Assembly: GCA_965213675.1 (NCBI GenBank)
Contig: CBDCAF010000019.1
Coordinates: 1 to 64,000, forward strand
DNA from: an uncultured Candidatus Binatia bacterium
GTDB lineage: Bacteria > Desulfobacterota > Binatia > UBA9968 > JAJDTQ01
Length of the DNA: 64,000 nt
Reading direction: 5' to 3'
How positions within the stretch are numbered: position 1 is the stretch's first letter; each line of letters starts with the position of its first letter. Under the pieces are notes generated by a model. It was given only the letters and a program-made list of their open reading frames with translations. It was not told where the DNA came from and made no database searches. Made by a program: the position numbers and the translations under genes. Of this stretch, positions 2,017 through 46,641 are shown in pieces.

Positions 2017-2461
2017 ATTGAAGCGGTTGACCCTCAAGTTGCGCTCCATCTGCACCGCCGCTCGCCGGATCATCGCGTCATGAACACGCAGTCGTTTCGT
2101 AAGTTCCGTCACCGCCCGATCTAATCGGAGATCGTAACGGTTCGGCATCAACTCCCGTTTGGGCTGTGGTTGATAGTGGTCCGTCGCGAGGTCCAGACGA
2201 TACTCGAACTCCGCTTGTGTCAGGTGAGGCATCATGCCCTCCTCTTTTGGTAAAGGAGGGCCGCTTGACAGGAGGCATACCTGTGCGGTACAAGGAAGGA
2301 ACCGTTGTCACACGGATTCCGACCTTGTGGCCCTCCGGGCCAGAAAGCCAGCGCCTCTCGTGGGTGCTGGCTTTTGTCATTCCGGCCAGTGTACCAACAT
2401 TCCCCGGTTCCGCAAGTTTCAAGTTGACACCCGCGCCGCATTCGTCCTAGACGTTGAGCTT

Positions 2462-3700
2462 ATGGCCGTTCCGAATTGGGCAAACCGAACGCTGTGGACC
2501 GGGGATAACCTGGATATAATGCGGGGGATGAACTCCGCGTCCGTGGACCTCATCTACCTGGACCCGCCGTTCAACTCCAAGGCCGACTACAGTGCGCCAA
2601 TTGGTTCCGAAGCCGCTGGTGCGGCCTTCAAGGATACATGGACACTAGATGACGTGGACGAAGCATGGCACGGCGAAATAGCCGACCGCGAACCAGCGCT
2701 GTACGCCATCATCGACGCTGCCGGACTCGCCCACAGCGCCAGCATGAAGTCCTATCTGATTATGATGGCAGTCCGGCTCATGGAGATGAAGCGCGTTCTT
2801 AAGGGAACCGGCTCCATTTATCTGCACTGTGACCAAACGGCAAGCCACTACCTCAAAATGTTAATGGACACCGTGTTTGGGAGGGACCGTTACCGTAACG
2901 AAATCACATGGTACTACATGAACAAGCTCGGAACGGGCGGGCGCGTGTTCGACCGTCAGCACGATACCCTTCTGTGGTACTCAGGGGACGACTACTCGTT
3001 TCACGTACTGAAGGAACCCGTTAAGCTCGCCAAACCGCAACCAGTTACCAAAAAGATAAAAGGTGTGCGGGTTTGGCTGCGAGACGATAAGGGCAAGCGG
3101 CTGTACCGGCATAGCACCACCAAGCGAATTGGCGACGTGTGGCCCATGCCGATTATTAATCCAATGTCGAAGGAACGCACGGGCTACCCTACTCAAAAGC
3201 CGCTCGCTCTTCTGGAGCGCGTTATCAATGCTAGTTCCGACAACGGACAGGTAATCCTAGACCCTTTCTGCGGGTGCGCCACGGCCTGTGTTGCCGCTGA
3301 GAAGCTCGGACGGCAGTGGGTAGGGATTGACCTATCACCGAAAGCCGCCGACCTCGTAAAGCTCCGGCTACGGAAGGAGATGGGGCTGTTTTACGATATC
3401 GAGCACCGGCGAGACATTCCGCGCCGCTTGGATCAAGGCAAGGCACCGAGCTACAAGACACACAAGCACACCCTCTTTGGCGTCCAGGAAGGACTCTGCG
3501 CCGGGTGCCGGGTCGCCTTCCCGTTCCGTAACATGACGATTGACCACGTGGTGCCACAGTCCAAGAGCGGGACGGATCACCTAATCAATCTGCAACTGCT
3601 TTGTGGTGCCTGTAACTCGATGAAGGGAACCCGGAGCCAAGAAGAATTTATCGCGGCACTTGTGCGGGAAGGACTGCGACAGCAAGGAGCGAGGACATGA
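2462..3700 (+). CDS. N6A/N4C DNA methyltransferase fused to C-terminal HNH nuclease domain
   Basis: GDNL, YLDPPF, YPTQKP and LDPFCGCAT motifs; C-terminal CAGC..IDHVVP..NLQLLCGACNSMKG; probable start is ATG 2462. Confidence 0.9.
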   Translation: MAVPNWANRTLWTGDNLDIMRGMNSASVDLIYLDPPFNSKADYSAPIGSEAAGAAFKDTWTLDDVDEAWHGEIADREPALYAIIDAAGLAHSASMKSYLIMMAVRLMEMKRVLKGTGSIYLHCDQTASHYLKMLMDTVFGRDRYRNEITWYYMNKLGTGGRVFDRQHDTLLWYSGDDYSFHVLKEPVKLAKPQPVTKKIKGVRVWLRDDKGKRLYRHSTTKRIGDVWPMPIINPMSKERTGYPTQKPLALLERVINASSDNGQVILDPFCGCATACVAAEKLGRQWVGIDLSPKAADLVKLRLRKEMGLFYDIEHRRDIPRRLDQGKAPSYKTHKHTLFGVQEGLCAGCRVAFPFRNMTIDHVVPQSKSGTDHLINLQLLCGACNSMKGTRSQEEFIAALVREGLRQQGART

Positions 3701-5150: not shown

Positions 5151-5225
5151 TTGCCTTGCCTCGCCCAGCCCAGCCTTGCCTTGCCTTGCCTTGCCTAGCA
5201 GCACCTTGCCCCGCCATGCAGCGCC
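5151..5225 (-). ncRNA. orphan GGY-NN pentamer array (putative guide RNA, VIPR-like)
   Basis: 15 in-phase pentamers on the minus strand (13 GGY, 2 TGC variants), directly downstream of a promoter. Confidence 0.65.
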
Positions 5226-5244
5226 AAATCTAGTTGAAGTCAAC

Positions 5245-5273
5245 ACCCTATAGCGGTTTTTGGGGGATGTCAA
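5245..5273 (-). promoter_or_regulatory. sigma70-type promoter driving the orphan array and leftward genes
   Basis: Minus strand TTGACA(5273-5268)-N17-TAGGGT(5250-5245), same boxes as at 40246-40274. Confidence 0.7.
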
Positions 5274-5295
5274 GACCCCCCCCGTGTAATCGTGT

Positions 5296-5460
5296 CCGTG
5301 GTGGTGGTGCCGTGGTTGCGTTCGACTCGCACCACGTCACGCCATGCACTGCCCGTGGTGGTGGTGGTGTGGTGGTGCCGTGGTGGTGGTGGTGTGGTGG
5401 TTGCGTCTCCGAGTAGCAGACGGCATGGACAACAGGTTAGTGGTGTGGTGGTGGCGTGAC
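5296..5460. repeat. GTG-rich low-complexity repeat tract
   Basis: Repeated CCGTGGTGGTGGTG and (GTG)n runs. Confidence 0.7.
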
Positions 5461-5543
5461 GGCATGGACACGGCACGATCCAGCCTGGATAGCAACCATG
5501 CGTTTGAGAACGCCATGCAATAAGTGACGGAGTGGTTGCGTAC

Positions 5544-5675
5544 AGGTGGCAGGTTATTGACTAGGGGTTTGCGTATGGGTTGCGGACTATTGACCAACAG
5601 GTTGCTTATGGGTTGCTGATTGTGGACTAGGGGTTTGACAATGGCACGTTGATTATGGACTAGGGGTTTGCTTAG
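5544..5675. repeat. 4 x 33-bp imperfect direct repeats (iteron-like)
   Basis: Units start at 5544, 5577, 5610 and 5643; core GACTAGGGGTTTG in three of the four. Confidence 0.8.
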
Positions 5676-5896
5676 CTCGTGGTGGTTGTCAACCCCATAG
5701 TTGAAAACGTCATGCAGTACCAGACGGCACATTCAATTGTGCGATAGGGGTTGACAAACGAGCAGTACGGTATTGGGTGGCCTTCAGTAGGCCGGACAGG
5801 TACTAAACCATTAGGCACCTTCGTAAAGTGCCGTGTCGTGGATTCTACAGCCTTGCCTCTAAGTATGCGAAATCGTTAAGGAATTTGGCCTTAAAC

Positions 5897-17939: not shown

Positions 17940-20900
17940 CTACACTCCCGGCCAGTCAATTTCAACGTCCGTGGGCCACACCAGCCGTCCCGTGACTCCC
18001 GGCCAATTCAGGAAGTCTGATTCGACCTCAAGGTGGGAGTTTGCCAACCCGGACCCGGAGAACGTCCCGGACAGTGAGACACCTTCCGGGTGCGATACGG
18101 CGGCGCTTGAACTGCCCAACCCGGACCCGGACAGCGTTGCGTCTATCCGCACGTCCGGCGGTTGTGTAACGTGCAGATTGGAGTTGCCTAGTCCGCTGCC
18201 GGTCGCGGTGACAACCAATTCCACCGGGTTCATAACGTCAAGCGTGGAGACGCTAAGGCCGGAACCCTGGAAGGTCCCTGCTATGAAAATCGACGGCACA
18301 TTGTCAACGTGTAGGGCGACTTCGATAACACTCAAGATGGCTGTAGCCGTCCCTGGATTTAGGTCAGAGCGGAAGTCGGTAAAGAAGTCGAATACGTCGC
18401 CGGCGGATGTAACCGTGTTCCCGTTGATCGTCGAAGTGAACACGGATGTCCACGGATGGCCGAAGTCAATATCATGGCCCTTCCAACGGATGTGCAGGCT
18501 AAGGTCTGTCCTCATCCGTTGTTCGACCGAACTGGCAGACTTCAGCACCAACCGGAACGTCCCATCGTCGTTCAGTGTAAAAGACGTTACGCCGGGAACA
18601 CCGGGACGTGGTGTGTGGAACCAATCGTCCGGGAATAGTCCGTCGATGTTCTCCCAGGTGATACTCCGCCGGGTTCCAACTGTGTTTGCCCCCATGTCCG
18701 CAACGAACTGTTCGCTGATAGAACTGCCCGCAAGGAACATGCCGGACATTCGCACATCTTCAGGGTGAAAGTAGTCAAGGCTGGACGAACCCAACCCGCT
18801 ACCTTGACCGAGTACCTTCAAGCGAATATCAGCCGGTTGGGCAACGGAGAAATTCGAGACGGACACGCCGGACGCGGCAAGGTCGGCGGCTATGCGAACG
18901 TCTGCCGGTGCGGCGTGACCGAGCGAACTGCTACCGATACCGCTGCCGGTCGCGCTTACCGCCATCCGTACATCGGCAGGCTGCACAACGGTCAGGTTCG
19001 ATGTCCCGATACCGCTGCCCGTCGCGGAGACTTCAAGGTTGACTTCCAGGTTGTCAACGGACAAGGAACTGTTGCCAAGGCCCGCGCCCGTAGCTGCTAC
19101 CTCAAGCTGTACGTCTGCCGGTTGTGCTACCTCGATAGTGGACGATCCAACACCGTCCGCCGTATCGGATGCCTCAAGCCGCACGTCACCGGGTTGTTCG
19201 ACGGTCAGGTTTGATACGGACAGCCCGCTGCCCGTAGCGGAGACTTCAAGGAGAGTTTCGGCAGGTTGGGCAACCTCAAGATTCGAGACACCCAAGCCGC
19301 TACCCGTGGCCGATACTTCTAGCCGGACATCGACGGGCTGTTCCACCGTCAGGTTCGAGACTTCCAACCCGCTGCCCGTAGCCGATACCTCAAGGCGTAT
19401 ATCCCCCGGCTGAACCACGCCGAAGTTGGAAACGCCCAACCCGCTGCCCGTGGCGAGTACTGCCAAAGCAACGTCACCGGGTTGTGTCACTTCGATGGTG
19501 GACGATCCAGCGCCGTCCGCAGAATCCGACGCTTCAATGCGAACGTCCGCAGGTTGCGTCACTCCCAGGTTGGAGACGGAAAGGCCGCTGCCCGTGGCGC
19601 TGGCTTCAATGGGTACGTCAACCGGCTGCACTACCTCAATAGTGGACGATCCAATACCGTCCGCAGAGTCGGACACTTCAAGCCGTTGGTCGCCCGCTTG
19701 ATCCACTCCCAGGTTCGATACGGACAGACCGCTACCCGTGGGGGCAACTTCAAGGCGGATGTCGGTGGGTTGTGCAACCCCAAGGTTCGAGACGGACAGG
19801 CCGCTACCCGTGGCGGCAACCTCAAGCGAGACATCGGCAGGCTGAACCACCGTCAGGTTCGACGATCCGATACCCGTGCCCGTGGCGCTGACTGCAATCA
19901 CCACGTCACCCGGCTGATCCACTTCGATGGTACTCTCGCCGACGCCATCCCCGCTGAACGTCCCTTCAATCCGGGAATCGCTCGGCTGAACCAGATTCAG
20001 ATTCGCCGTACCCAACCCGGACCCGGCAAAGGTCCCTTCGATTCGGATGTCGTGATTGTCAACGAGAATATTGGAACGAGCGGTTCCAACGCCAAGTGCA
20101 AGGGTTTCGAGTCTAACGTCGCCCGGATTCACCACCAGAAACGAACTTGCCGCCAGTCCGGTGCCCAAGAACGTGCCTTCAACGCGGTTCTCCGGGTTGT
20201 GAACGGACAGGAGGACAGCGCCGGTCCCGGACACCACGGCGGCAACCTCAAGGCGGATGTCGGCAGGCTGGACCACCGCCAAGGCGGACACCGAGAGTCC
20301 GCTGCCGGTAAACGTCTCGGATAGCCGGACATCTTCCGGGTGCAGGTGGTCCAGGTCTGATATGCCCAACCCCATACCGGCAAACAGGCCGTCGATTCGG
20401 ATGTCAGCGGGCTGCGCGACGGCAAGGTGGGAGATACTAAGCCCGGAACCCATCAGGAACGCCGCCAGATCGACGCTAGGCGGGTTTAAAACGCTAAGGG
20501 TAGCTTCACCTATCCCCGTACCTTGCGGAAGGGCTACGAGGGAGACAGGGCCAATGTCCAGGCGGGAGAATGCAATGCCGTACCCCTGGAGCAAGCACTC
20601 TAGGAGGATCGCGTGTTGTTCGTGGTCCGGTATCTCTGCCGGAAGGCCGACGAACACGACCCGGCGATAGATTCGCTGCTTGAGGCTGCTATCGGTAGCC
20701 GATTCGAAATAGTCGGCTAGTTTATGTGTGGTGTATTCAGAAATCGACGCAAGAACATCGTCGCCCAGGATGTCCGCGCCGTCCGCCGACAAAGCCGTGC
20801 AGTACAACTCGAAGAAGCGGATAGAAGGGTCAAGGGGTCCGTCAAGGATGTGCGGGCGCTGGTTCCCTGCCGTCCGGTACAGGACAGCCGGTGCTAGTTC

Positions 20901-20984
20901 TTCCCCTTGTGGCAGGCGTCCACGCCACACGGGTAGGCCCGTTTCGGCGCGAATCTGTTGTCGCAGGTAGTGTTCAGTTCGCAC
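17940..20984 (-). CDS. tail terminator-like domain fused to long 24-aa repeat region
   Basis: N-terminal LPQ..PAVLY..FELYC; more than 20 repeats of QPxDVRLEVSATGSGLxxSNLxV. Confidence 0.65.
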   Translation of the reverse strand: MRTEHYLRQQIRAETGLPVWRGRLPQGEELAPAVLYRTAGNQRPHILDGPLDPSIRFFELYCTALSADGADILGDDVLASISEYTTHKLADYFESATDSSLKQRIYRRVVFVGLPAEIPDHEQHAILLECLLQGYGIAFSRLDIGPVSLVALPQGTGIGEATLSVLNPPSVDLAAFLMGSGLSISHLAVAQPADIRIDGLFAGMGLGISDLDHLHPEDVRLSETFTGSGLSVSALAVVQPADIRLEVAAVVSGTGAVLLSVHNPENRVEGTFLGTGLAASSFLVVNPGDVRLETLALGVGTARSNILVDNHDIRIEGTFAGSGLGTANLNLVQPSDSRIEGTFSGDGVGESTIEVDQPGDVVIAVSATGTGIGSSNLTVVQPADVSLEVAATGSGLSVSNLGVAQPTDIRLEVAPTGSGLSVSNLGVDQAGDQRLEVSDSADGIGSSTIEVVQPVDVPIEASATGSGLSVSNLGVTQPADVRIEASDSADGAGSSTIEVTQPGDVALAVLATGSGLGVSNFGVVQPGDIRLEVSATGSGLEVSNLTVEQPVDVRLEVSATGSGLGVSNLEVAQPAETLLEVSATGSGLSVSNLTVEQPGDVRLEASDTADGVGSSTIEVAQPADVQLEVAATGAGLGNSSLSVDNLEVNLEVSATGSGIGTSNLTVVQPADVRMAVSATGSGIGSSSLGHAAPADVRIAADLAASGVSVSNFSVAQPADIRLKVLGQGSGLGSSSLDYFHPEDVRMSGMFLAGSSISEQFVADMGANTVGTRRSITWENIDGLFPDDWFHTPRPGVPGVTSFTLNDDGTFRLVLKSASSVEQRMRTDLSLHIRWKGHDIDFGHPWTSVFTSTINGNTVTSAGDVFDFFTDFRSDLNPGTATAILSVIEVALHVDNVPSIFIAGTFQGSGLSVSTLDVMNPVELVVTATGSGLGNSNLHVTQPPDVRIDATLSGSGLGSSSAAVSHPEGVSLSGTFSGSGLANSHLEVESDFLNWPGVTGRLVWPTDVEIDWPGV

Positions 20985-26978: not shown

Positions 26979-27028
26979 TTGTCATGCCTTGCCACGCCAC
27001 GCCGCGCCTAGCCGTGCCTTGCATCGCC
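26979..27028 (-). ncRNA. orphan GGY-NN pentamer array between portal and protease
   Basis: GGCGA TGCAA GGCAC GGCTA GGCGC GGCGT GGCGT GGCAA GGCAT GACAA, in phase. Confidence 0.6.
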
Positions 27029-30507: not shown

Positions 30508-31376
30508 GGCGTTGCCCCCAGGGGTCGCAGCTTCTTGCGCAAGGCGCTCTCGAAGTCCTCACGCTTAACGGCATCGGCGGCCAGTAGCTTGTTAGCTGAC
30601 GCTTCCAACGGCAACACTTCCCAGTGGCGCGGCTGGATGCGGTAGTCATCGGATATGTCCAGGGTGAGCCAGACGATATCCCCTTCATTCAAGTCGTGCG
30701 AGGGTTGGGAAGTGTTGCCACCGATAGCCTCAAAGAATGCCGTGTCTACGGCCACGGCCATCTTTTTGCCCCACTGCCGAAGTGTTGGAATCTTCACCAA
30801 AAGTTGCGGCATGAGCCGCTTTGCGCTGGATGATCGCCAGTCCGGGCGCCGACGGACCGTAGGACCGGGCGGCAGGCGTCCGTTATCATCAGCCAAGAGT
30901 TGGAAGTCTGGCGTCATGCCCTTCCCGGAGAAGTAAACTGCTTGGATTTCCAGACCATACCACTCGGATGCCGCGTCATCCCCGGAGAGCACCAGGTCAA
31001 TCCGCCCAGCTCCGCGGTTCGTCTCCGGCGAACGCATGAAGGGCACTTCGGGGGCCACGTAGACATCACTGAAACCGACGATATCCGCAAGCCATCTATG
31101 GACTACTTTGTCCTGTTCAAACCGCTTGGGACACATGATGATAATCTGTCCTACGGGCTCACCGATCCGGTCAGCCAAATGGTCCCCGGTGTAAGGTCGA
31201 TAGTCCCGTTGCGAACAGACGCCGCCCTTCTTCCCACAGGGGCGCCCTGTCTGGAACGGGCATAGGGGCGGTGGCGCTTCTTCCAGGGCGGACTTGGCGA
31301 GTTCCCGGCGCCGTCGCACCGGCATCCCCCATAGGGGTTCGCCGTACCATTCGGCGATACCAAAGCGCTCGCTCAT
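30504..31376 (-). CDS. NotI-family restriction endonuclease
   Basis: Four-Cys CPF..CGKKGGVCS..CPKRF; GRIDLVL..LEIQAVYFSG; RPDWRSSSAKRLMPQL. Confidence 0.85.
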   Translation of the reverse strand: MSERFGIAEWYGEPLWGMPVRRRRELAKSALEEAPPPLCPFQTGRPCGKKGGVCSQRDYRPYTGDHLADRIGEPVGQIIIMCPKRFEQDKVVHRWLADIVGFSDVYVAPEVPFMRSPETNRGAGRIDLVLSGDDAASEWYGLEIQAVYFSGKGMTPDFQLLADDNGRLPPGPTVRRRPDWRSSSAKRLMPQLLVKIPTLRQWGKKMAVAVDTAFFEAIGGNTSQPSHDLNEGDIVWLTLDISDDYRIQPRHWEVLPLEASANKLLAADAVKREDFESALRKKLRPLGATP

Positions 31377-32242
31377 GCGAATATCCTTTCCCGCGTGATT
31401 ACCAGTTCGGGCAGATGGTTGTGGTGCGCATTTTTCATCGTCACTCGCACGGCGTGGAATCCATATTGATGCACCAATTCCACAATCTCGGGGGCGGCGT
31501 CGTAGGTCATCAGGAAGTCTGCGGAATGACGGGCCAAGGTTTTGAACAGGGCGGCATGGTCAACCGTGTTGTGGGCATAGAGCCGGTGACCGGGCCTTTT
31601 ACCGCTAGCCGCTGTATAGGGCGGGTCGAGGAATACCGCGACACTTTCCGTGCCGGTTAGCAGGTAATCCAGTATCCGGGCTCCGTCACCTTCCAAGAAG
31701 TGAATCTTGTCTGCGTGGCGCTCTATTTCTGCAATCCGGTGGACCAATGTCTCAGGATACCATCGAGACAGCACTCCCTTGCCATTCTCGCCGTTGCGCG
31801 TGAAGGATGCGCCAGGGGCCAAGATTCCCGCCCGCTTCGTGCGGTTCAGCACCAGCGTGCGAAACCCATGCTCGCCTGCTCCGGTGATCCCATTCTGTTC
31901 GAGATCCAAGAGTGTTTCTCGCGTCGGCGTGAACTGCGCAATCCATTCCCGGAGCATGGCCCCGTCTCTTAACGCGGCATGCCAAAAGGCCGCAACGTCG
32001 TGATCGATCTCGATCATAATGGCGCGATCAGTCAGGTCCTCCATGACGGCGGTAAGCGAGACGATCCCGCCGCCTGCGAACGGCTCCACCAGAGTCTTCG
32101 GCCTTGTGACCTTCAGCCACTCCCGGATGTGCGGAACGAGCCATGTTTTGCCGCCCGGATAGCGAAGCGGGCTACGCTGTGGCACCGTGGCGACGTTGAC
32201 GGCGGGGAAGCGTGACGTGGGGAATGCCACGCTAGAAGACAT
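31373..32242 (-). CDS. Dam-like (D12 class) DNA adenine methyltransferase
   Basis: SPLRYPGGK, EPFAGGG and FLDPPY motifs. Confidence 0.9.
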   Translation of the reverse strand: MSSSVAFPTSRFPAVNVATVPQRSPLRYPGGKTWLVPHIREWLKVTRPKTLVEPFAGGGIVSLTAVMEDLTDRAIMIEIDHDVAAFWHAALRDGAMLREWIAQFTPTRETLLDLEQNGITGAGEHGFRTLVLNRTKRAGILAPGASFTRNGENGKGVLSRWYPETLVHRIAEIERHADKIHFLEGDGARILDYLLTGTESVAVFLDPPYTAASGKRPGHRLYAHNTVDHAALFKTLARHSADFLMTYDAAPEIVELVHQYGFHAVRVTMKNAHHNHLPELVITRERIFA

Positions 32243-33605: not shown

Positions 33606-34121
33606 CTATAATTCCCTAACTTTAGGCTTACGCCGCAAGGTCCCGACAATTCCCGACCTCGAAGCATCACGGGTATGCTTTCCACTGATAGGAATGTAAT
33701 CAAGGCGCGGCAATCTCCTTTCCATATCTGTCCATCCCGCATACCGCCAATTAGCGGCCCTGTAGACGTAGCCAAGGTGGCCCTGTGTGGTATCTGCGTA
33801 GCTCACCACAATGGCCGGCCGAAAAGCCCTAAGAGCCCGCGAGAGAAACCAAGTCTCGGTGTTGCGTGGCAATCGGTCGCTAACCCACAACCGATTCAAC
33901 TCAAAAACTACATCCGGTGATCGTGGGGCAACGGACACACGTAAATGGTGTGAGGCAGGGACGCCAAGGGTGATAATACCCTGTGGCTCGCCCCACCAAC
34001 TATCACGCAAGCAAAAGGCGTCGGATATGGACGGTTTCCGGTGTAAGTAGTGTTCGCGAATGATAATAATTGCCGCATCCGAACTTTTAATCCGTTCTAC
34101 AGTTAACTGTTGCCTCATCAT
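33606..34121 (-). pseudogene. mom: Mom-like DNA modification protein (GNAT fold), 5' part, truncated by the IS
   Basis: EHYLHR, FELNRLW, RNTETWFLS and VSYADTTQGHLGYVYRAANW motifs; the stop lies inside the IS end. Confidence 0.8.
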
Positions 34122-34498
34122 ACTTCCACCTGCACCCACGCTTCGTATCCCGATTCGTTGACCCGTCGTTCTAGTTCCACCTTCTTTCCGCACACCGTCA
34201 CCACCTTTCGTTCCCCCGTTGCAACGAAGGGCGCGGGTCGGTCCAAGTCCATATCGTTGTGCCCCCGCAACCTCCTTTGCTTTTCCTCCTTTCCCAACGG
34301 CCTGCGTTTTGCCTTCGCGGATCGTTCTCTAAGTCCACGTTCCGCTTCCCGCTGGCATTCCCACTTTTCACAACGGTAGTACATCAACCCACCAAGCCGA
34401 CGCGGGACCAACTCTCGAAGGTCGCCACACGTAGGACAAATCGGAGACCCACTCCCGGTAGTTCCACCCATGACCAGCTCCTTACTCCTTGCCTGCAA
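34118..34498 (-). CDS. hypothetical Zn-ribbon protein
   Basis: CPTC..CEKWEC; coupled to the mom-like gene. Confidence 0.5.
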   Translation of the reverse strand: MQARSKELVMGGTTGSGSPICPTCGDLRELVPRRLGGLMYYRCEKWECQREAERGLRERSAKAKRRPLGKEEKQRRLRGHNDMDLDRPAPFVATGERKVVTVCGKKVELERRVNESGYEAWVQVEV

Positions 34499-37600: not shown

Positions 37601-37775
37601 GATCCCTCCATTCCTCCCTTATCCGACGAAGGAATTTTATGCAGCGAAGGCACGTTATTTCCGATTCCTTGTCGGTTCCCGAATCATGCGTCTCTCCCCA
37701 AGCACGACGAATTGGAGTGCCACAAACGCTACGTGCGGGCCAGAATAACTGCCGCATGTGTTTCTTCAATTTCAT
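37593..37775 (-). CDS. small Zn-binding protein
   Basis: H..VCG..ITCLRC, similar to the neighbouring gene. Confidence 0.5.
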   Translation of the reverse strand: MKLKKHMRQLFWPARSVCGTPIRRAWGETHDSGTDKESEITCLRCIKFLRRIREEWRDHG

Positions 37776-38899
37776 GCCTTTGCCCTACCTTTCCGCTGTC
37801 TAATCACGTAGGCCGTGATGTTATTGCGAATCTGCTTTGCCAGCGAAAGGTCAATCTCGTGTGCCATCTTCAGCATGTTCCATGACATCGGCGGGGCGTG
37901 TGGAAGCAGCGCCTTGTATTGTGCGAACGCGAACCGCCGCGCCTTGGGGATGTCCAGCGGGTAGCGTTTACAAGCGAAATACATAACCTGCCCCCACACA
38001 TCCATCGGTGACAGTCCCAAACGAACCCGCTTCCCCTTTGGCCCGATCTCGACCATTTCTTGACCGATCTCGCGAATGTCCTTTTTCGGGGCGGCTGCTT
38101 TTTTCTCCGGTTTCCACCCGCAATTCGGACATTCCTTGTGCCAGCGCAGCATTATCAATCCGCATTGCGGACATTCCATCGGAGACGTTGTAGGTTCATC
38201 CCGTGGCTTCTTGTCCTTGGCTTCCACTTCCGGCAACCCTTCAATGCCGTTCTCGTAGAAGTCCTCGATGTCATCCTGCATACGAATGTAGTTGCCGGAT
38301 TGATCCAATAGGACGCAATACTTCTTTCCCTCGTGCGGACGCATTCCGCGACCATACATCTGAATTACAGACGATAGGGATTTGCGGTACGCCCGCCGGT
38401 CGATAATCATTTCGGTGTCGGTGAAGTCCGCACCACGCTGAAGAACCTCACAACTTACAAGACCGCGAATCTCCCCGGCGCGGTAAGCTGCCACCTTCGC
38501 ACGTCTGTCACGGTCCTTATCGTCCAGGTAGGACAGTTGTTCACACGGGATACCTTCTTGGTTAAACCGCCGCACAACGTCCCTACCGTCCACAACAGAC
38601 GCAGAGAACACCAGGAATTTCGCGTTGCGACCAAAGAGCGCGTCACACTTCTCTCGATACTCCGGGACCATCCGCCCGATGATTGCTTGGGCCGCGTCGC
38701 CTGCCGAACCTGCTTCCAGTTCGCCGGAACTGGTCCGCTTGATTTTGCTTATATCGACGTGTTCGCAGCCGAATGGTCGCAACGGGACAAGCCACTTGTC
38801 CGCAATCAGTTCGTTCGTAGTACGAACGTTGACAACCCGTCCGTAGAACCCACTCAACTTGGGGTTGAACGGCGTGGCGGATAGACCTATGACCCGCAT
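37772..38899 (-). CDS. SF2 helicase, C-terminal part (motifs III-VI plus Zn finger)
   Basis: GLSATP, VLQRGADF, QMYGRGMR, CPQC..CPNC; has its own GGAAGGA RBS. Confidence 0.85.
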   Translation of the reverse strand: MRVIGLSATPFNPKLSGFYGRVVNVRTTNELIADKWLVPLRPFGCEHVDISKIKRTSSGELEAGSAGDAAQAIIGRMVPEYREKCDALFGRNAKFLVFSASVVDGRDVVRRFNQEGIPCEQLSYLDDKDRDRRAKVAAYRAGEIRGLVSCEVLQRGADFTDTEMIIDRRAYRKSLSSVIQMYGRGMRPHEGKKYCVLLDQSGNYIRMQDDIEDFYENGIEGLPEVEAKDKKPRDEPTTSPMECPQCGLIMLRWHKECPNCGWKPEKKAAAPKKDIREIGQEMVEIGPKGKRVRLGLSPMDVWGQVMYFACKRYPLDIPKARRFAFAQYKALLPHAPPMSWNMLKMAHEIDLSLAKQIRNNITAYVIRQRKGRAKA

Positions 38900-39117
38900 C
38901 GTCCTTCCAGTCTCGAAATTTCACGATCTATGTGGAACCGTGCTTTTCGCAAGTCCTCAAGATCGTCTCCGTCTGTCGGCTTTTTGCCAAAGCGCCAGAT
39001 ATACGCGATGGCATTCCCCAGGTTGAAATTGAATTCTTCAGTTACCTGAATGCACTCAATCCCACTTGGGTGCCATGTATAGTGTGGTGGGTGCGTTACG
39101 TTGTTATTTGCCATCAT
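38887..39117 (-). CDS. DUF3310 (SaV-like) protein
   Basis: VTHPPHY..IECI..FNLGNAIAYIWR.GKK..EDLRKARFHI. Confidence 0.85.
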   Translation of the reverse strand: MMANNNVTHPPHYTWHPSGIECIQVTEEFNFNLGNAIAYIWRFGKKPTDGDDLEDLRKARFHIDREISRLEGRCGS

Positions 39118-39580
39118 GGACTCCCATTACTATTGCCATGACATTCTTCATTTTGATTTTGCCCTTGTCTTGTGGCCGGTAAAAAACCACTCCCTCATTG
39201 CACATTATAGGTATTGGCGTTGCCTCAATGCTCAAACCATACAAGTGTAAGATGTGCCGAACATATTTTTCCTGAATGAACACCCTGTGCTGTCCACCCT
39301 CGCTAGGGAATCCAACTGCAACGTGCCAAGCTATCGGTTTCAACTCGACATCAGTGCGCAGTCCTACCTTTGGCAGTTTTTTGAAGATGTCCATGTCGAT
39401 CATGTTGGACGTGAACCTAAGTTCTTCTTTCCACTTTTCCCCTGCGGGCAAGCCGTGTCGGAGAATCATATGGTTGTTGGTAAACCAATCCCCGCGAACG
39501 GACCAAACGTGCGACACATTCGCAATCGCCTTGCCTGTCAGCTTGGCAGGCCCCAATTCCCGCCAGTTTTCCATTATCAT
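39104..39580 (-). CDS. hypothetical phage protein
   Basis: WFTNNHMI..FIQEKYV..AIVMGV; coupled by an ATGA overlap. Confidence 0.55.
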   Translation of the reverse strand: MIMENWRELGPAKLTGKAIANVSHVWSVRGDWFTNNHMILRHGLPAGEKWKEELRFTSNMIDMDIFKKLPKVGLRTDVELKPIAWHVAVGFPSEGGQHRVFIQEKYVRHILHLYGLSIEATPIPIMCNEGVVFYRPQDKGKIKMKNVMAIVMGVHDGK

Positions 39581-39993
39581 TCCATCCCTCCCAAAACCTT
39601 GAGAACCTTCCGGCGAATGATGTGACATTCGTCGATAATCACAAGGTCGAACTGTTCAAAAAAGCACTTCAGGTTTTGTTCAGACATCCTTTCAAGTGTC
39701 TGCGAAGAACACACCACAATCGGGGCTGTTACCCGGTGGCTGTTCCCGGCCTGAAGGACTCCGTGATACAGTCCGGCCTTTGTCAACGCCGCCGAAGTCT
39801 GGTCTACCAGAACCAAGCGGTCCACCAGAAAGCAGGCCCGCTTGCCGTTCTCGACAACCCGTTTCATCATGTCCACGGCGACCATCGTTTTCCCCGATCC
39901 CGTTGGGGAACAGAGAACTTGGTGGTTGAAGCCACGGCGCAAGCCTTCCCTCAAGGCTTCTTCAGCCTCTAGTTGGTAGGGTCGGAGCTCCAC
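39577..39993 (-). CDS. SF2 helicase, N-terminal part (motifs Q, I, II)
   Basis: LRPYQ, PTGSGKT and IIDECH, with a stop 14 codons after DECH. Confidence 0.85.
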   Translation of the reverse strand: MELRPYQLEAEEALREGLRRGFNHQVLCSPTGSGKTMVAVDMMKRVVENGKRACFLVDRLVLVDQTSAALTKAGLYHGVLQAGNSHRVTAPIVVCSSQTLERMSEQNLKCFFEQFDLVIIDECHIIRRKVLKVLGGME

Positions 39994-40187
39994 TAGTCCG
40001 CTTCCTCTAGGTCCTTCCTATGGATGGCAAGGCCACGGGCACTAACCATCCGGTACAAGTCCGTAATCCAATGTCTAGGGATTTGGCCGTTCCACACCCA
40101 GGACCGCACGGCACTTGCTGTGAGTCCGAGTTCGCGGGCAACGGCCTTCGTCCCACCTAGTCTGTCTAGGACGGTTGAGATTTTCAT
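39993..40187 (-). CDS. Cro-like HTH regulator
   Basis: LGGTKAVARELGLTASAVRSW..IP; ATG 40187 lies 7 nt after a -10 box (leaderless). Confidence 0.8.
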   Translation of the reverse strand: MKISTVLDRLGGTKAVARELGLTASAVRSWVWNGQIPRHWITDLYRMVSARGLAIHRKDLEEAD

Positions 40188-40194
40188 GCAAAAC

Positions 40195-40274
40195 CAGATA
40201 CCGGAAAGAAATTTCCCTGTCAACTACTTTTTTCCGTTGTAGTAGTTGACAAGGTAGGAAGGTGGTGGTAGGGT
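40195..40274. promoter_or_regulatory. divergent promoter pair with operator-like inverted repeat
   Basis: Left: TTGACA(40223)-N17-TATCTG. Right: TTGACA(40246)-N17-TAGGGT. IR TGTCAACTACT-N12-AGTAGTTGACA. Confidence 0.75.
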
Positions 40275-40314
40275 TCGCGTCAACGGTCAAGGCAGGTTGA
40301 ACTTGACTGGACAT

Positions 40315-40399
40315 GGCTAGGCCGGGCTAGGCGGGGCACGGCCCGGCATGGCACGGCAAGGCACGGTCAGGCAAGGCAGGGCAGGGCAAGGCATGGCAA
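40315..40399 (+). ncRNA. GGY-NN pentamer array 1 (putative guide RNA)
   Basis: 17 consecutive perfect GGYNN units. Confidence 0.75.
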
Positions 40400-40440
40400 C
40401 CACGATGAATGAACAGGAAAAACTAATTGGCTTATAAATT

Positions 40441-40600
40441 GACAAGACGTGGCAGGGCTCGGCAAGGCGCTACGAGGCAAGGCCGGGCTAGGCAGGGCTA
40501 GGTATGGCGTGGCAGGGTCAGGCAAGGCACGGCTAGACTAGGCAAGGTAAGGCGCGGTATGGCATGGCAAGGCAAGGCGCGGCGAGGCATGGCAAGGCAA
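40441..40600 (+). ncRNA. GGY-NN pentamer array 2 (putative guide RNA)
   Basis: 32 in-phase pentamers: 28 GGY and 4 GAC/TAC variants. Confidence 0.75.
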
Positions 40601-40649
40601 CCAGAAAGGAAGGGATGCACAACGGCAAATGACGCAGAACACGACACTT

Positions 40650-40704
40650 GACACGGCCGTGCTAGGCTCGGCGAGGCGCGGCTTGGTAGGGCAGGGCAAG
40701 GCAA
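40650..40704 (+). ncRNA. GGY-NN pentamer array 3 (putative guide RNA)
   Basis: 11 in-phase pentamers immediately before the RBS of the RAMP gene. Confidence 0.7.
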
Positions 40705-40725
40705 ACCAAGGAAGGAATCAGAACA

Positions 40726-41298
40726 ATGGAAATCGCAATCCGAGTGGAAGGCAAGTCACCGCTGTTGTTGCACCGTTTCACGGACGCGGCCCAGATGGCG
40801 GCAACCAACGGCACCCGGTCCAACATCACGACCGCACGGGAACCCCGCGAGGAAGCGGAAAGCCACCTGTACGTAGGCGAGGACGGGACGCTTATCGTTC
40901 CCTCCCCCAATATGTTCCGCTGCATCATCGACGCCGGCAAGTTCCACAAGGTCGGCAAATCCAAAATGACCACCGTCAAAAGCAGTTTGATCCCCGCCGC
41001 GCTGCTGATCGACCCGGCAGACGGCATTCCGATCCTCCACGACAAGCCCTGGACCGTGGACACGCGGCCCATCCGTATCCCGGCGAACGGTTCGCGGATT
41101 CTCCGTCACAGGCCGTGCTTTCACGATTGGGCCTTGGAATTCACGCTCACCTTGGACACCGACATCATTTCCCACAACACACTGCGTGACGTGGTAGACG
41201 ACGCAGGGAACAAGATCGGCTTGGGCGACTTCCGACCGGACACCAAGGGTCCGTTTGGTCGGTTCGTTGTCACGAACTGGATACCGTCTCAAAGGTAG
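40726..41298 (+). CDS. solo Cas7/RAMP-like RNA-binding protein (Vipr-like)
   Basis: Beta1 IRVEGKSPLLLH, VPSPNMFRCI helix, Arg-rich thumb DTRPIRIP..RILRHRP, WALEFTL, Gly-rich loop IGLGDFRP..GPFGRF. Confidence 0.75.
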   Translation: MEIAIRVEGKSPLLLHRFTDAAQMAATNGTRSNITTAREPREEAESHLYVGEDGTLIVPSPNMFRCIIDAGKFHKVGKSKMTTVKSSLIPAALLIDPADGIPILHDKPWTVDTRPIRIPANGSRILRHRPCFHDWALEFTLTLDTDIISHNTLRDVVDDAGNKIGLGDFRPDTKGPFGRFVVTNWIPSQR

Positions 41299-41314
41299 CC
41301 TGCCCTAGAACTAT

Positions 41315-41347
41315 GCCACGGCAGGGTTCGACAATCCCTGCCGTGGC
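41315..41347 (+). other. 12-bp perfect hairpin preceding array 4
   Basis: GCCACGGCAGGG-ttcgacaat-CCCTGCCGTGGC; no U-tract follows. Confidence 0.7.
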
Positions 41348-41394
41348 TTGGCTAGGCATGGTTGGGCAAGGCGCGGCAAGGCAAGGCTTGGCGT
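41345..41394 (+). ncRNA. GGY-NN pentamer array 4 (putative guide RNA)
   Basis: 10 consecutive perfect GGYNN units. Confidence 0.7.
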
Positions 41395-41415
41395 CAATCC
41401 GATGGAGCAATAGCT

Positions 41416-42108
41416 ATGAATGAAGCATGGACACCCGAAGCAGCCGCCCGACTCCGGGACTACCTAGCACGACCCGGCTACACAATCCCCGTGGGTCTGG
41501 GCACGGAAGATGCGGCGTGTTCCATAGCCGCCATCAACCTTGCCCTAAGCGGCGTAATGACCGACGACATACCGGAATGTATGAGTCTCGTGATCGGCGT
41601 GTGGGTAAGGACAATCCAGGACATGATGCCGGAAGCCATCCGTAACAGTCCTAAATGGATTGAGTTACTGCCCCTGGCGGCAGGCACAGGCAGGGAACAA
41701 GACTACGAACACAAGCGCCTCGACATGGTTCTCGATTGGATGTGGGGCACCGTCCTGCCCCAAAGCCAACTCGCTGCTAATCAAGAGGGTTGCGGCAGGC
41801 AATGGAAATCAATGTGTGCGGGGAGAACACAGTATCTTGCGGTAATTGCGTATATGGCTGCCGATCGGTGTGGCGCACTCAACTTGGCCCGCCGGGCCGA
41901 TAGCGCGAGAGAAGCTCGGAAGACTGCCCTGGCGCTCCAAAATTTCAAACCAACGTGGTCGAACACAAGTACATTTGTCGTCAAGGCGGTACAACAAGCG
42001 TGTCAAACTGCCATGCGGTCGCGCACATCACCAGCATGGGGCAACATTGACCCTGTAGGCATGTTGACCCGGCTTATTAACCTACCCGGAAGGAAAAACA
42101 ATGAGTGA
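41416..42108 (+). CDS. conserved phage hypothetical protein
   Basis: GGAG RBS; ACSIAAINLAL..DDIPECMS..LLPLAAGT. Confidence 0.65.
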   Translation: MNEAWTPEAAARLRDYLARPGYTIPVGLGTEDAACSIAAINLALSGVMTDDIPECMSLVIGVWVRTIQDMMPEAIRNSPKWIELLPLAAGTGREQDYEHKRLDMVLDWMWGTVLPQSQLAANQEGCGRQWKSMCAGRTQYLAVIAYMAADRCGALNLARRADSAREARKTALALQNFKPTWSNTSTFVVKAVQQACQTAMRSRTSPAWGNIDPVGMLTRLINLPGRKNNE

Positions 42109-45444: not shown

Positions 45445-46641
45445 ATGAAAGTCTTGTCTGTCTGTTCTGGTATTGGTGCCGACGCGGTTGCATGGCACAA
45501 ACTTGGCTGGACAACCGCAGCATTCGCCGAAATTGAACCCCACGCCGCGACGGTGTTGCGTCACCATTACCCGAATGTCCCGAACCACGGAGACTTTACT
45601 ACGATCAAGGGACACGAATATGGATCAATTGACCTTATTGTCGGCGGAACCCCCTGCCAGTCCTTCTCAATCGCGGGACTCCGCAAGGGAATGGATGATA
45701 ACCGTGGCAACCTGGCCCTCCAGTTTATCCGACTTGTTGATCGAATCCGCCCCCGTTGGGTCGTTTGGGAGAATGTCCCAGGAGTGTTCTCGGCAATTAC
45801 CAACGACACGACCGATCCAAACAGATCAACTGAAACACATGCATTCGCCTGCATCCTGGCCGGATTTCAGAAATTCGGGTATGGGTTCGCCTACCGAACT
45901 TTGGACGCTCAATTTGTGCGAGTGGAATCTCACCCTCGTGCCGTCCCACAGCGACGGCGCCGTGTGTTCCTTGTCGGACATATTGGAGACTGGCGCCCAC
46001 CTACAGCGGTACTCTTTGAGCCCAAAGGCTTGCGTCGGAATCCTGCGCCGCGCAGAAAACCGAGGCAAGAAGTTGCCGGAACATTTAGCGCGCGTCCTTC
46101 AGGCGGTGGCGGTCTCGGAACCGATTTCAAGTGCGCCGGGGGCTTAGTCACCAGAGAAGTAGCACCGGCCCTAGACGCCCACGGTTCAGGATATTCTGAT
46201 TTCCAAACAAACGGCGGGCTTATCGGATACGGCGTAAGGACGGACGGGCCACGGGACGTGTCCACCAGTCTGAACGCGCATGGTCAACGACTGGACTTCG
46301 ATACAGAAACGTTTGTCATGCAGGAACGCTTAGAGACCCCGAATCCCGATAGCGGCCCTAACGGCAAGGGCTGGCGTGGGGATGGGGTTGCATTCACTAT
46401 CGAAGCTCGAAGCAAACCGCAGTCCGTAGCAACATCAACTGTTCGCCGAATCACACCGACCGAAGCAGAACGGTTAATGGGACTACCGGATAATTACACG
46501 CTTGTCCCGTACAAAGGCAAGCCGATGGCCGATGGTCCACGCTACAAGTTGCTTGGCAACTCAATCGCCATCAACTGCCTATCGTGGATCGGCCAACGGA
46601 TTGCCATGTTTGAATCCCTCGATACCTTCAGTGAAGCCTAG
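45445..46641 (+). CDS. C5 DNA cytosine methyltransferase
   Basis: CSGIG, GGTPCQSFS, WENVPG, PQRRRRVF, ERLMGLPD and LGNS motifs. Confidence 0.95.
   Translation: MKVLSVCSGIGADAVAWHKLGWTTAAFAEIEPHAATVLRHHYPNVPNHGDFTTIKGHEYGSIDLIVGGTPCQSFSIAGLRKGMDDNRGNLALQFIRLVDRIRPRWVVWENVPGVFSAITNDTTDPNRSTETHAFACILAGFQKFGYGFAYRTLDAQFVRVESHPRAVPQRRRRVFLVGHIGDWRPPTAVLFEPKGLRRNPAPRRKPRQEVAGTFSARPSGGGGLGTDFKCAGGLVTREVAPALDAHGSGYSDFQTNGGLIGYGVRTDGPRDVSTSLNAHGQRLDFDTETFVMQERLETPNPDSGPNGKGWRGDGVAFTIEARSKPQSVATSTVRRITPTEAERLMGLPDNYTLVPYKGKPMADGPRYKLLGNSIAINCLSWIGQRIAMFESLDTFSEA
45620..46147 (+). CDS. nested alternative-frame polypeptide of the C5 MTase (beta-subunit-like)
   Basis: AAGGGA RBS, ATG 45620; CSLSDILE..RYSLSPKACVGILRRAENRGKKLP. 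Confidence 0.6.
   Translation: MDQLTLLSAEPPASPSQSRDSAREWMITVATWPSSLSDLLIESAPVGSFGRMSQECSRQLPTTRPIQTDQLKHMHSPASWPDFRNSGMGSPTELWTLNLCEWNLTLVPSHSDGAVCSLSDILETGAHLQRYSLSPKACVGILRRAENRGKKLPEHLARVLQAVAVSEPISSAPGA

Follow-up and report, generated by a model that had tools for sequence, protein, structure and literature searches.

What kind of system is formed by a gene for a small Cas7-like protein that is flanked by arrays of pentamers, in which the first three bases are nearly always GGC or GGT (GGY) and the last two (NN) vary? The gene lies in a 64,000-nt stretch of DNA, referred to here as the window, and the terminase, portal, protease, capsid and tail protein genes of its contig (PHROGs) provide a viral context. 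VIPR (Viral Interference Programmable Repeat) systems, as described in two preprints, consist of a small RAMP protein and GGY/NN-repeat guide RNAs (vrRNAs) that read DNA with each third base skipped and silence its transcription (bioRxiv 10.64898/2026.04.26.720920, 10.64898/2026.04.26.720927). Since the window combines a small Cas7-like protein with putative guide-RNA arrays of GGY/NN pentamers, the locus is very probably a phage-encoded VIPR system, and thus of a kind already described in 2026, to which it is a divergent and somewhat unusual addition. An earlier note on this DNA had made the same attribution, and the two preprints, together with the homology to the Vipr protein of phage SUSP1, bear it out.

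The Cas7-like protein and its neighborhood

The candidate vipr gene is an open reading frame on the plus strand (40726-41298) whose 190-aa product would be Vipr, a RAMP protein with a single RRM domain and a relative of Cas7, judging from its sequence and predicted structure. A phmmer search aligned residues 49-182 with PDB entry 36pp_D, annotated as SUSP1 Vipr protein (E 8e-11, 44.8-45.3 bits), and the full length of the protein matched phrog_4652 (E 8e-24). Matches were found by tblastn in 163 phage records, among them felixounaviruses, with an identity of ~27-28% to the SUSP1-like felixounavirus homologues. Just one of 27 congeneric genomes carries a Vipr-like gene (28% identity). The AF2 model of the window protein (pLDDT 80.2, pTM 0.77) has a Cas7-like fold, as the earlier note had anticipated from sequence hallmarks; Foldseek returned 64 PDB matches for it at E <= 0.001, and the Cas7 family occupied the top rows.

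The preprints give H17, R138, D177, W178 and R179 as the GGY-binding residues of SUSP1 Vipr and describe a structure in which one GGY is held jointly by two neighbouring protomers (bioRxiv 10.64898/2026.04.26.720920, 10.64898/2026.04.26.720927), an arrangement that differs from the one subunit per GGY proposed in the earlier note. SUSP1 residues R138, D177, W178 and R179 correspond to R129, D168, F169 and R170 of the window protein in the phmmer alignment, with positions counted from the alignment itself, and all 20 of the 20 clade members compared have these four residues unchanged. SUSP1 H17 falls outside the aligned stretch; the window protein has H16, and most of its relatives have N. The pyrimidine-pocket residues E71 and M72 of SUSP1 Vipr, which correspond to P61 and N62, are not conserved.

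Divergently oriented from vipr are a Cro/YdaS-like HTH gene (39993-40223, minus strand) and a ResIII helicase gene represented by its N-terminal part (39577-39993, minus strand), both recognized with Pfam and PHROGs. A ResIII helicase gene is located 3' of vipr on the same strand at 14 of 23 viral relatives' loci, whereas in the window it is split and on the opposite strand. A promoter-like motif, TTGACA-N17-TAGGGT, precedes the first array (40246-40274, plus strand), and its only other exact copy in the window precedes a distant array (5245-5273, minus strand), such that each copy of this 12-base bipartite sequence is shortly 5' of an array. The promoter claimed for this region is present as a sequence with a perfect -35 element, but the -10 element of the copy at 40246-40274 is weak (3/6) and a sigma-70 and terminator scan of 39900-41700 yielded 0 sites. 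Between the vipr stop codon and the array that follows is a perfect 12-bp hairpin (41315-41347, plus strand; 12 pairs and a 9-nt loop by RNA folding), which, like the 190-aa gene, had been described correctly before. It is not followed by a U tract, and the terminator scan made no call there.

The 230-aa gene immediately 3' of this region (41416-42108, plus strand) occupies the position expected for a vap accessory gene. Its product has no significant match to a Pfam, PHROG, NCBIfam or PADLOC family, the best NCBIfam hit being a sub-threshold one to IscA (17 bits against a cut-off of 150.6 bits), and its 474 homologues are hypothetical proteins. The model of the protein is all-alpha (pLDDT 88.2) and gave 0 PDB fold matches at E <= 0.001, and the gene is beside vipr at 0 of the 23 viral relatives' loci. 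A 66,472-base ENA contig, probably from the nearest sibling phage, encodes four paralogues of the 230-aa protein. No vap gene was recognized at the window locus. The description of the vipr gene as solo is only roughly right, since the 230-aa gene may be an accessory. The window also conforms to the description of a locus free of a CRISPR array and other cas genes: 0 of its 73 ORFs matched a core Cas protein model (PADLOC, E <= 1e-5), the sole Cas-labelled match was to a generic PADLOC model for a Cas-associated 2OG oxygenase, and a tandem-repeat scan detected no CRISPR-like repeat-spacer array.

Organization of the pentamer arrays

Four arrays surround vipr on the plus strand, and two more, on the minus strand, are located elsewhere on the phage; all six would serve as templates for vrRNAs. 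Array A1 (40315-40399) has 17 units, all GGY, with 9 distinct NN pairs, and ends in GGCAT GGCAA followed by CCA. Array A2 (40451-40600) has 30 in-phase units, of which 28 are GGY; to arrive at the 32 units given previously, GACAA and GACGT (40441-50) have to be counted as well. Its two deviant units, TACGA (40471-75) and GACTA (40536-40), divide it into stretches of 4, 12 and 12 units, and it probably comprises more than one vrRNA. The tandem-repeat scan found internal periods of 25 and 45 nt in A2, which point to block duplications, and its low-complexity 3' half (NN pairs AA AA GC AT AT AA AA GC GA AT AA AA) may be decayed. Array A3 (40650-40704; 11 units, 9 of them GGY) ends 21 nt 5' of the vipr start codon, and the purine-rich ACCAAGGAAGG that separates the two looks like a ribosome-binding site. 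Array A4 (41345-41394) has 10 units, all GGY, and ends 21 nt 5' of the ATG of the 230-aa gene. The unit counts and NN strings of A1, A3 and A4 agree with those reported in the earlier note.

That note had recognized the four arrays near vipr and missed those on the minus strand. Array A5 (5151-5225; 15 units, 13 of them GGY) is 35.5 kb from vipr and 26 nt 5' of the ATG of gene 5125-4742. A 33-nt iteron-looking repeat is close to it, at 5555-5637. Array A6 (26984-27028; 9 units, 8 of them GGY) is 13.7 kb from vipr and occupies the gap between the portal stop codon (27033) and the protease ATG (26962). A marginal run of 5 units on the minus strand (5329-5353), also overlooked before, came from a permissive scan and was dropped as an array because runs of 5-7 units are common genome background under the same rule.

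Within the six arrays GGY makes up 85 of 92 units (77 GGC and 8 GGT; 64 of 68 in A1-A4, 40315-41394), with an entropy of 0.2-0.4 bit for positions 1-3 as opposed to 1.7-1.8 bit for positions 4-5, in keeping with the earlier description of nearly constant GGC/GGT and variable NN. Each array has 7-11 distinct NN pairs, and AA accounts for 27 of the 92. The longest strict run was 17 units in the window and 3-4 units in 100 block shuffles of it, so the arrays are not products of chance. Variable arrays of at least 9 units are confined to this contig within the 4.53-Mb assembly, the other 4.46 Mb having none that is comparable. The assembly has just one other long pentamer run, (GGCTC)31 on contig C1, a homogeneous microsatellite, and this tract on the host chromosome raises the idea that the phage tracts are likewise functionless slippage microsatellites or by-products of base composition. 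We find this idea scarcely credible, given that the microsatellite is homogeneous while the phage arrays are diverse in their NN pairs, that shuffled runs do not exceed 4 units, and that arrays accompany members of the Vipr family across phyla.

The co-occurrence was evident from the loci of relatives, in line with the earlier expectation that homologues would be flanked by arrays. Same-strand arrays of at least 6 units are present at 18 of 23 IMG/VR loci of vipr relatives, and same-strand arrays of at least 7 units are present at 34 of 54 genome loci; 5 of the viral and 20 of the genomic relatives have no array by the criteria used. The same script, as a positive control, found arrays of 11-12 units beside the Vipr homologue of a SUSP1-like felixounavirus. 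When whole records of five relatives were scanned, one had a distant array, ~15 kb from vipr. Arrays directly before a gene are also seen in relatives, namely both arrays of locus L024 and the arrays 5' of the helicase gene in L009 and L013.

Arrays at the genome loci keep strictly to the vipr strand, with opposite-strand ones at 0 of 54, and this bears on whether the tracts could instead be double-stranded DNA sites, such as iterons or operators for the adjacent Cro-like regulator. A divergent regulatory region containing an HTH gene next to A1-A3, and iteron-looking repeats near A5, would be compatible with such sites. Binding sites of this kind are highly improbable nonetheless: besides the strand bias (34 against 0 of 54), one array is within a late structural operon, the hypervariable positions 4-5 are unfit for a fixed binding site, and the NN strings of the clade spell genes of other phages when one base is skipped.

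The array 3' ends share only short motifs (GGCAA GGCAA, then CCA, [TA]CCAAGG or GGATT) and lead by way of purine-rich sequence to the next start codon. The conserved ~40-nt pseudoknot tail of the SUSP1 type is absent 3' of the window arrays, and Rfam yielded nothing relevant. Four of the six arrays (A3, A4, A5 and A6) end 21-26 nt 5' of a start codon, from which a purine-rich site separates them, and together with the same layout in L024, L009 and L013 this suggests that arrays might act in cis, in addition to or in place of guiding in trans. In that case vipr, the 230-aa gene, gene 5125-4742 and the protease gene would be tuned in their translation or stability, either by Vipr filaments on the mRNA or by the cleavage releasing vrRNAs. 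We consider a cis role of this sort unlikely, since the same arrangement would arise from densely packed phage genes if vrRNAs were simply cut from polycistronic transcripts, and the guides of the clade clearly have trans targets.

The one-base-skip rule and candidate targets

Whether NN strings spell gapped targets could be answered for the clade of the window protein. We compared 98 pooled clade guides with 570,804 bases and with three shuffles, and counted windows matching at 16/18 or better. When one base was skipped there were 115 such windows, 15 of them perfect, compared with a total of 40 in the three shuffles (~13 per shuffle). No excess was seen with no skipped base (14 windows, 32 in the three shuffles) or with two (8 windows, 27 in the three shuffles). 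The 49 matches of at least 17/18 came from 13 guides and fell in 25 loci, never in the guide's own locus (0/49), and in 34 of them the NN bases coincided with codon positions 1-2 on the sense strand, which leaves the skipped base in the wobble position. The targeted ORFs encode ResIII/DEAD helicase, AAA_24 and DUF669 proteins of sibling phages. In the Walker-A region of the helicase, for example, a guide of L009 agrees with three rivals at 20/20, whatever the wobble base, and with the corresponding site in the helicase gene of L009 itself at 14/18. The effective guide block in the clade is 9-10 units. The one-base-skip rule is therefore reproduced with guides of this clade, and the analysis is an independent, purely computational reproduction of the one-base-skip code, wobble alignment and self-avoidance. 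It also suggests a class of targets, the replication and recombination genes of sibling phages.

By homology with the solved SUSP1 system, the window arrays would be transcribed and processed into vrRNAs, and Vipr protomers would polymerise on each transcript, one per pentamer, sequestering the GGY bases. Four sequencing runs, all from one study, contain this DNA, and no RNA run is listed among them. The exposed NN bases would pair with double-stranded DNA while skipping each third base, and the bound filament would stop transcription of the target. Since the clade guides target replication and recombination genes of sibling phages, the role of such a system is likely the exclusion of competing phages.

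The earlier proposal that NN strings spell a gapped target thus holds for the clade guides, but for the six window arrays no target exceeded the shuffled background in any of the collections searched. Within the assembly (skips of 0-3, 5-unit seeds, 20 shuffles) matches were at the null level except for arrays matching themselves at skip 3; the best match of 9-unit windows in all contigs but C1 was 15/18, equal to the null, and self-targeting on the phage's own contig reached 13-14/16 at best, which is the chance level. Related loci (L002-L078) gave only 14-15/16, a noise level, and a codon-level BLOSUM scan for protein-level matches showed no excess. Exact scans had 0 matches in IMG/VR (A1 units 1-10, two windows of A3, A2 units 6-15, and A6) and 0 in metagenomes (A1 units 1-11 and A2 units 6-16). 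In the 28 family genomes, 0 had a match to 17 or 12 units of A1 or to 12 units of A2a with up to 3 mismatches, and 0 had a match to 9 units of A1, A2a, A3, A4 or A6 with up to 1 mismatch. At the class level, 0 of 401 genomes matched, and a control pattern gave 2.

Two apparent hits were rejected as chance: an in-phase match to a VRR-NUC-like gene on the same contig (37042-37362) was 13/16 with mismatching flanks, and a single exact IMG/VR match to all 10 units of A4 was on a contig of 38% GC, off the wobble phase and with no second guide converging on it. Two other matches may be taken as leads. A5 matches one homologous site in a branched-chain amino-acid permease gene in 3 of the 28 family genomes (17/18, antisense, in wobble phase), and the carrier's own permease orthologue matches at 13/18; as one event in six such searches, this is compatible with chance and serves as a lead only. 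A weak lead comes from the 3' half of A1, which, compared in phase with 62 foreign vipr genes, matches best at the TTQKSSMI motif (14/16, maximum of 13 in 20 shuffles); the 5' half would require changes at invariant residues.

A lesser but serious possibility is that the locus is a VIPR system in which some or all arrays are decaying or idle, their targets being extinct or unsampled and parts of them duplicated filler. The lack of a target for all six arrays in the collections searched would fit such a history, as would the frequency of AA among the NN pairs (27/92) and the 25- and 45-nt internal duplications of A2. The phage is, moreover, nearly devoid of sampled relatives; its AAA protein has 4 distant relatives in IMG/VR, and a search of 50,697 phage records with its terminase gave 0 matches (E <= 1e-20). 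However, vipr has an uninterrupted frame with every checked residue conserved, GGY has been kept in 85 of 92 units, a lack of targets is expected when the kin of the phage are unsampled, and the scans of the collections accepted exact matches only.

For this Vipr clade we tentatively raise, as an unlikely extension, the idea that the arrays are dual-use elements scattered over the phage genome that combine trans silencing with cis coupling. In trans, a guide would silence the rival allele of a replication gene, and the phage would retain a resistant allele, often beside the guide; if this were true, the arrays would make sibling phages incompatible in an allele-specific manner. In cis, arrays before ribosome-binding sites, including the one in the portal-protease junction, would link the expression of vipr and late genes with vrRNA release or Vipr loading.

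Comparison with known RNA-guided systems

The closest known systems are the type II VIPR systems of Escherichia phage SUSP1 and a Pseudomonas fulva prophage, and the preprints distinguish seven types, with vrRNAs of 9-16 repeats that have a conserved structured 3' tail and a vap gene typically beside vipr (bioRxiv 10.64898/2026.04.26.720920, 10.64898/2026.04.26.720927). The window locus shares with these two a Vipr protein of ~190-200 aa, the thumb arginine and the G-loop (GDWRP in SUSP1, GDFRP in the window), as well as phage-borne, same-strand GGY/NN arrays on both sides of vipr in a region without a CRISPR array or cas genes. Guides of its clade likewise skip one base at the codon wobble position and do not target themselves. 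The similarity to the SUSP1 protein is distant, however, and Y is C in 77 of 85 window units but mostly T in the felixounavirus control. The window arrays lack the ~40-nt pseudoknot tail of SUSP1-type arrays, and two of them, at 17 and 30 units, exceed the published range (the latter may be two 12-unit vrRNAs), the others having 9-15 units. In further contrast to SUSP1 and P. fulva, no vap1-like gene was recognized, arrays are also found 13.7 and 35.5 kb from vipr, and the clade targets helicase, AAA_24 and DUF669 genes of sibling phages rather than satellites or lysogeny regulators.

Solo (orphan) vrRNAs, according to a further preprint, occur in satellites and VIPR-null phages (bioRxiv 10.64898/2026.10.15.759431). 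As described there, they resemble the window's distant arrays in being apart from any vipr on a mobile element and in matching self less well than rivals, but the phage with A5 and A6 has retained a vipr of its own, and one of these two arrays is within a head-morphogenesis operon.

The window protein is only 9-14% identical to Cas7 and Csm3 of Class 1 CRISPR effectors in structural alignments, and the window has no partner Cas proteins, CRISPR array or spacers. The VIPR period is 5 nt for the guide and 3 nt for the target, whereas both are 6 in CRISPR systems, and its published activity is DNA silencing rather than RNA cleavage. VIPR, a class of RNA-guided DNA recognition known for only months, is a proposed ancestor of the CRISPR RAMP proteins. 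The locus contributes to this class a divergent member whose phage lineage has been poorly sampled, with GGC-dominated arrays that are long and in part distant from vipr, no tail of the SUSP1 type and no recognizable accessory gene. The short 3' ends of the arrays and the effective guide block of 9-10 units are practical leads for engineering and classifying VIPR systems.

Arrays around vipr and elsewhere in the window

The plus-strand stretch at 40246-41394 opens with the motif TTGACA-N17-TAGGGT, which is followed by the GGY/NN arrays A1 (17 pentamers, 40315-40399), A2 (40451-40600) and A3 (11 units, 40650-40704), the 190-codon gene vipr (40726-41298), a perfect 12-bp hairpin seen on RNA folding (41315-41347), and a fourth array, A4 (10 units, 41345-41394). 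The sequence bears out this layout, which the earlier note had described, except in the length of A2: the array is present, with 30 in-phase pentamers of which two are degenerate, and the 32 units first given are reached only by counting two preceding GAC units. An array scan revealed two further arrays that had been overlooked, both on the minus strand and far from vipr. A5 (15 units, 5225-5151) is preceded by the window's one other exact copy of TTGACA-N17-TAGGGT, and a gene (5125-4742) begins 26 nt past it, while A6 (9 units, 27028-26984) takes up the 70 nt that separate the portal stop from the protease start. A run of five units at 5353-5329 (minus strand) falls within background and was dropped.

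With all arrays pooled, GGY is found in 85 of 92 units, and entropy within the unit rises from 0.2-0.4 bit over positions 1-3 to 1.7-1.8 bit over positions 4-5. The longest strict run in 100 block shuffles of the window was at most 4 units. The sole comparable run in the rest of the genome is a homogeneous (GGCTC)31 microsatellite on the host chromosome (contig C1, 3713838-3713992), outside the window, which is a useful contrast to the arrays because true slippage repeats are uniform.

The spacers contain mini-ORFs of 10 codons after A1 (40405-40437) and 5 codons after A2 (40615-40632), the latter preceded by a ribosome-binding-like GGAAGGG. Upstream of A5 lies a large non-coding region (5230-5700) in which a 33-nt repeat is present 2.5 times (5555-5637), the motif CAAACCCCTAGTCCA recurs, and a tract rich in GTG/CCA has a period of 3 (5353-5401). 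These repeats may be iterons or operators, and they had no guide matches under the skip rule described below.

Vipr and its relatives

Vipr, the RAMP/Cas7-like product of vipr, had no family in Pfam, NCBIfam or PADLOC, and its PHROGs match was to phrog_4652 (E 8e-24), a group whose function is unknown. A sequence search of solved structures returned 36pp_D, the 'SUSP1 Vipr protein' (E 8e-11). According to the structure paper, SUSP1 residues R138, D177, W178 and R179 hold the two guanines and the pyrimidine. Counted by position in the printed 36pp_D alignment, these correspond to R129, D168, F169 and R170 of the window protein, all four of which are invariant across a 20-member clade alignment. 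The non-target-strand contacts K82, G87 and K88 correspond to K72, G77 and K78; SUSP1 E71 and M72 are not conserved in the window Vipr, and H17 is beyond the aligned region.

IMG/VR holds 23 loci with Vipr relatives (48-61% identity), and same-strand arrays of at least 6 units adjoin the gene in 18 of them. A genome search limited to one genome per species gave 54 loci (26-63% identity) from metagenome-assembled genomes labelled Planctomycetota, Magnetococcales, Desulfovibrionaceae, candidate phyla radiation and others; an array of at least 7 units lay on the same strand in 34 of the 54 and on the opposite strand in none. One relative (L017) carries twelve consecutive arrays of 8-15 units each at 2143-2944, separated by the spacer GGATTTTAG. 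In another (L041), fourteen lie upstream of the gene. Among five relatives whose whole records were scanned, one had a distant array, some 15 kb away from vipr.

Arrays of the clade mostly end in AA AA (GGCAA GGCAA), followed by a [TA]CCAAGG-like or GGATT sequence that often leads directly into the ribosome-binding site of the next gene. In a SUSP1-like felixounavirus, used as a positive control, the same script found three arrays of 11-12 units, mostly GGT, each followed by a conserved tail of about 40 nt. Compared with this control, the window's arrays lack the SUSP1-type tail.

The skip code at clade level

Published accounts describe Vipr as a RAMP of about 20 kDa and its guide RNAs (vrRNAs) as runs of 9-16 YNNGG repeats that end in a structured 3' tail and whose NN bases recognise double-stranded DNA with one base skipped per repeat, mostly at codon wobble positions; the systems are reported to silence transcription without a PAM and without self-targeting (10.64898/2026.04.26.720920, 10.64898/2026.04.26.720927). 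We took as guides the NN strings of all 98 arrays of at least 9 units from the collected relatives' loci and the phage contig, and slid 9-unit windows of them across the 570,804 bases of these same sequences, skipping 0, 1 or 2 target bases per repeat and using shuffles of unit order as the control. Skipping one base gave 115 diagonals matching at least 16 of 18 positions (66 at 16, 34 at 17 and 15 perfect), versus 40 in three shuffles together (39 at 16 and 1 at 17). The corresponding counts were 14 versus 32 for skip 0 and 8 versus 27 for skip 2.

The 49 matches of at least 17/18, whose homologous targets are not independent, came from 13 guides and fell in 25 loci, never in the guide's own locus. 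Read on the sense strand of the longest open frame, NN occupied the first two codon positions in 34 of the 49. Nine representative target frames encode two ResIII/DEAD helicases, two AAA_24 ATPases, two DUF669 proteins and three proteins without a family, and these target classes belong to the replication/recombination module that also houses vipr. The clearest case is a guide located just upstream of its own phage's helicase gene (L009), which agrees at 20/20 positions with the Walker-A region, DNPCVVIPTAGGKTP, in the helicases of three other phages despite differing wobble bases; L009's own helicase, DNPAIVLPTAAGKTL at the same site, matches at 14/18. The matched block spans about 9-10 units of a guide. 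The last two units were matched in full in 16 of 98 cases and the remaining units in 420 of 628. The AA AA ends thus act like a handle rather than as part of the guide.

The phage, its guides and comparison with known systems

The window covers the opening 64,000 bases of a contig of 70,608 bases (56% G+C), part of a 4.53-Mb assembly in which the main chromosome is 65.7% G+C. PHROG matches indicate that the contig carries a tailed phage, with genes for the large terminase, portal, head protease, major head protein, adaptor, tail proteins, spanin, SSB, an exonuclease VIII-like nuclease, a helicase and several DNA methyltransferases. The anti-restriction load is heavy for a single phage, with three DNA methyltransferases and a Mom-like modification protein (2234-3700, 31373-32242, 33606-34193 and 45445-46641); of the methyltransferases, one has a fused HNH nuclease domain and one is similar to PD-Lambda-5_B. 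Within a 1014-aa ORF (17940-20984), 72-nt tandem repeats form two sets (19282-19451 and 19708-19862), which probably encode a repeated domain in a tail or fibre protein.

None of the collections searched held a convincing target for the window's own guides. The carrier's assembly and the related loci gave none above shuffled controls at the nucleotide or codon level, eight exact scans of viral and metagenome collections gave no matches, and mismatch-tolerant searches of 28 to 401 related genomes gave none in nine of ten. An exact-scan match of A4 in a 38% G+C contig was out of phase and not convincing. The exception was A5, units 1-9 of which matched a branched-chain amino-acid permease gene in 3 of 27 congeneric genomes, at one conserved antisense site in wobble phase (17/18, against 13/18 in the orthologue of the carrier). 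As a single event in six such searches, this possible target is a lead and not a finding. Because the phage has almost no sampled kin (its AAA protein had four distant matches, and its terminase matched none of 50,697 phage records), the lack of targets counts only weakly against function, and it also agrees with published reports that VIPR systems do not target themselves.

By position, the gene after A4 (41416-42108) is a candidate VIPR accessory (vap) gene. Its 230-aa product had no family in four libraries and is one of a large group of hypothetical proteins, most of them viral. Its homologues have a conserved N-terminal half with invariant C35, C55, W108 and W130, and paralogues number up to four per contig, on contigs of 66,472, 34,466 and 9,843 bases. 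The predicted model is confident and all-helical (pLDDT 88.2), with no PDB match at E <= 0.001, and the gene is missing from all 23 viral relatives' loci. In 14 of those 23, a ResIII helicase lies downstream of vipr, and such helicases are themselves targets of sibling guides. The window's ResIII/DEAD helicase (37772-39993, minus strand) is on the strand opposite vipr and in two pieces, an N-terminal one of 138 aa (39577-39993; phrog_16 positions 271-392) and a C-terminal one of 375 aa (37772-38899; positions 408-682). Between them are two small ORFs, of 174 aa without a family and of 76 aa matching 'nucleotide kinase' PHROGs, and the arrangement looks like an insertion into the gene.

The homology and fold of Vipr, the arrays, their linkage to the gene and the clade-level code, all observed here, support the earlier note's recognition of a VIPR system from raw sequence, which was correct. 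The evidence best supports an ordinary VIPR system that works in the published way. We infer expression, processing, binding and silencing at the window locus: array transcripts would be coated by Vipr, with R129, D168, F169 and R170 of neighbouring protomers sequestering the GGY bases, the NN bases would read a gapped DNA site, and the filament would block transcription of a competitor's gene. The value of the locus lies in the code confirmed at clade level and in the unusual placement of its arrays.

The VIPR papers (the two cited above, 10.64898/2026.10.15.759431 and 10.64898/2026.10.21.760802) describe seven types that differ in their vap genes, 664 loci, arrays that can be staggered or separated by ribozymes, and solo vrRNAs carried by satellites or by phages from which vipr has been lost (10.64898/2026.10.15.759431). 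Compared with the characterised type II systems, the window locus differs in repeat composition and array length, its arrays lack the tail, it has no recognisable vap gene, and its phage has scattered arrays, one of them within a late operon. These five differences are variations within a family that its authors already call diverse.
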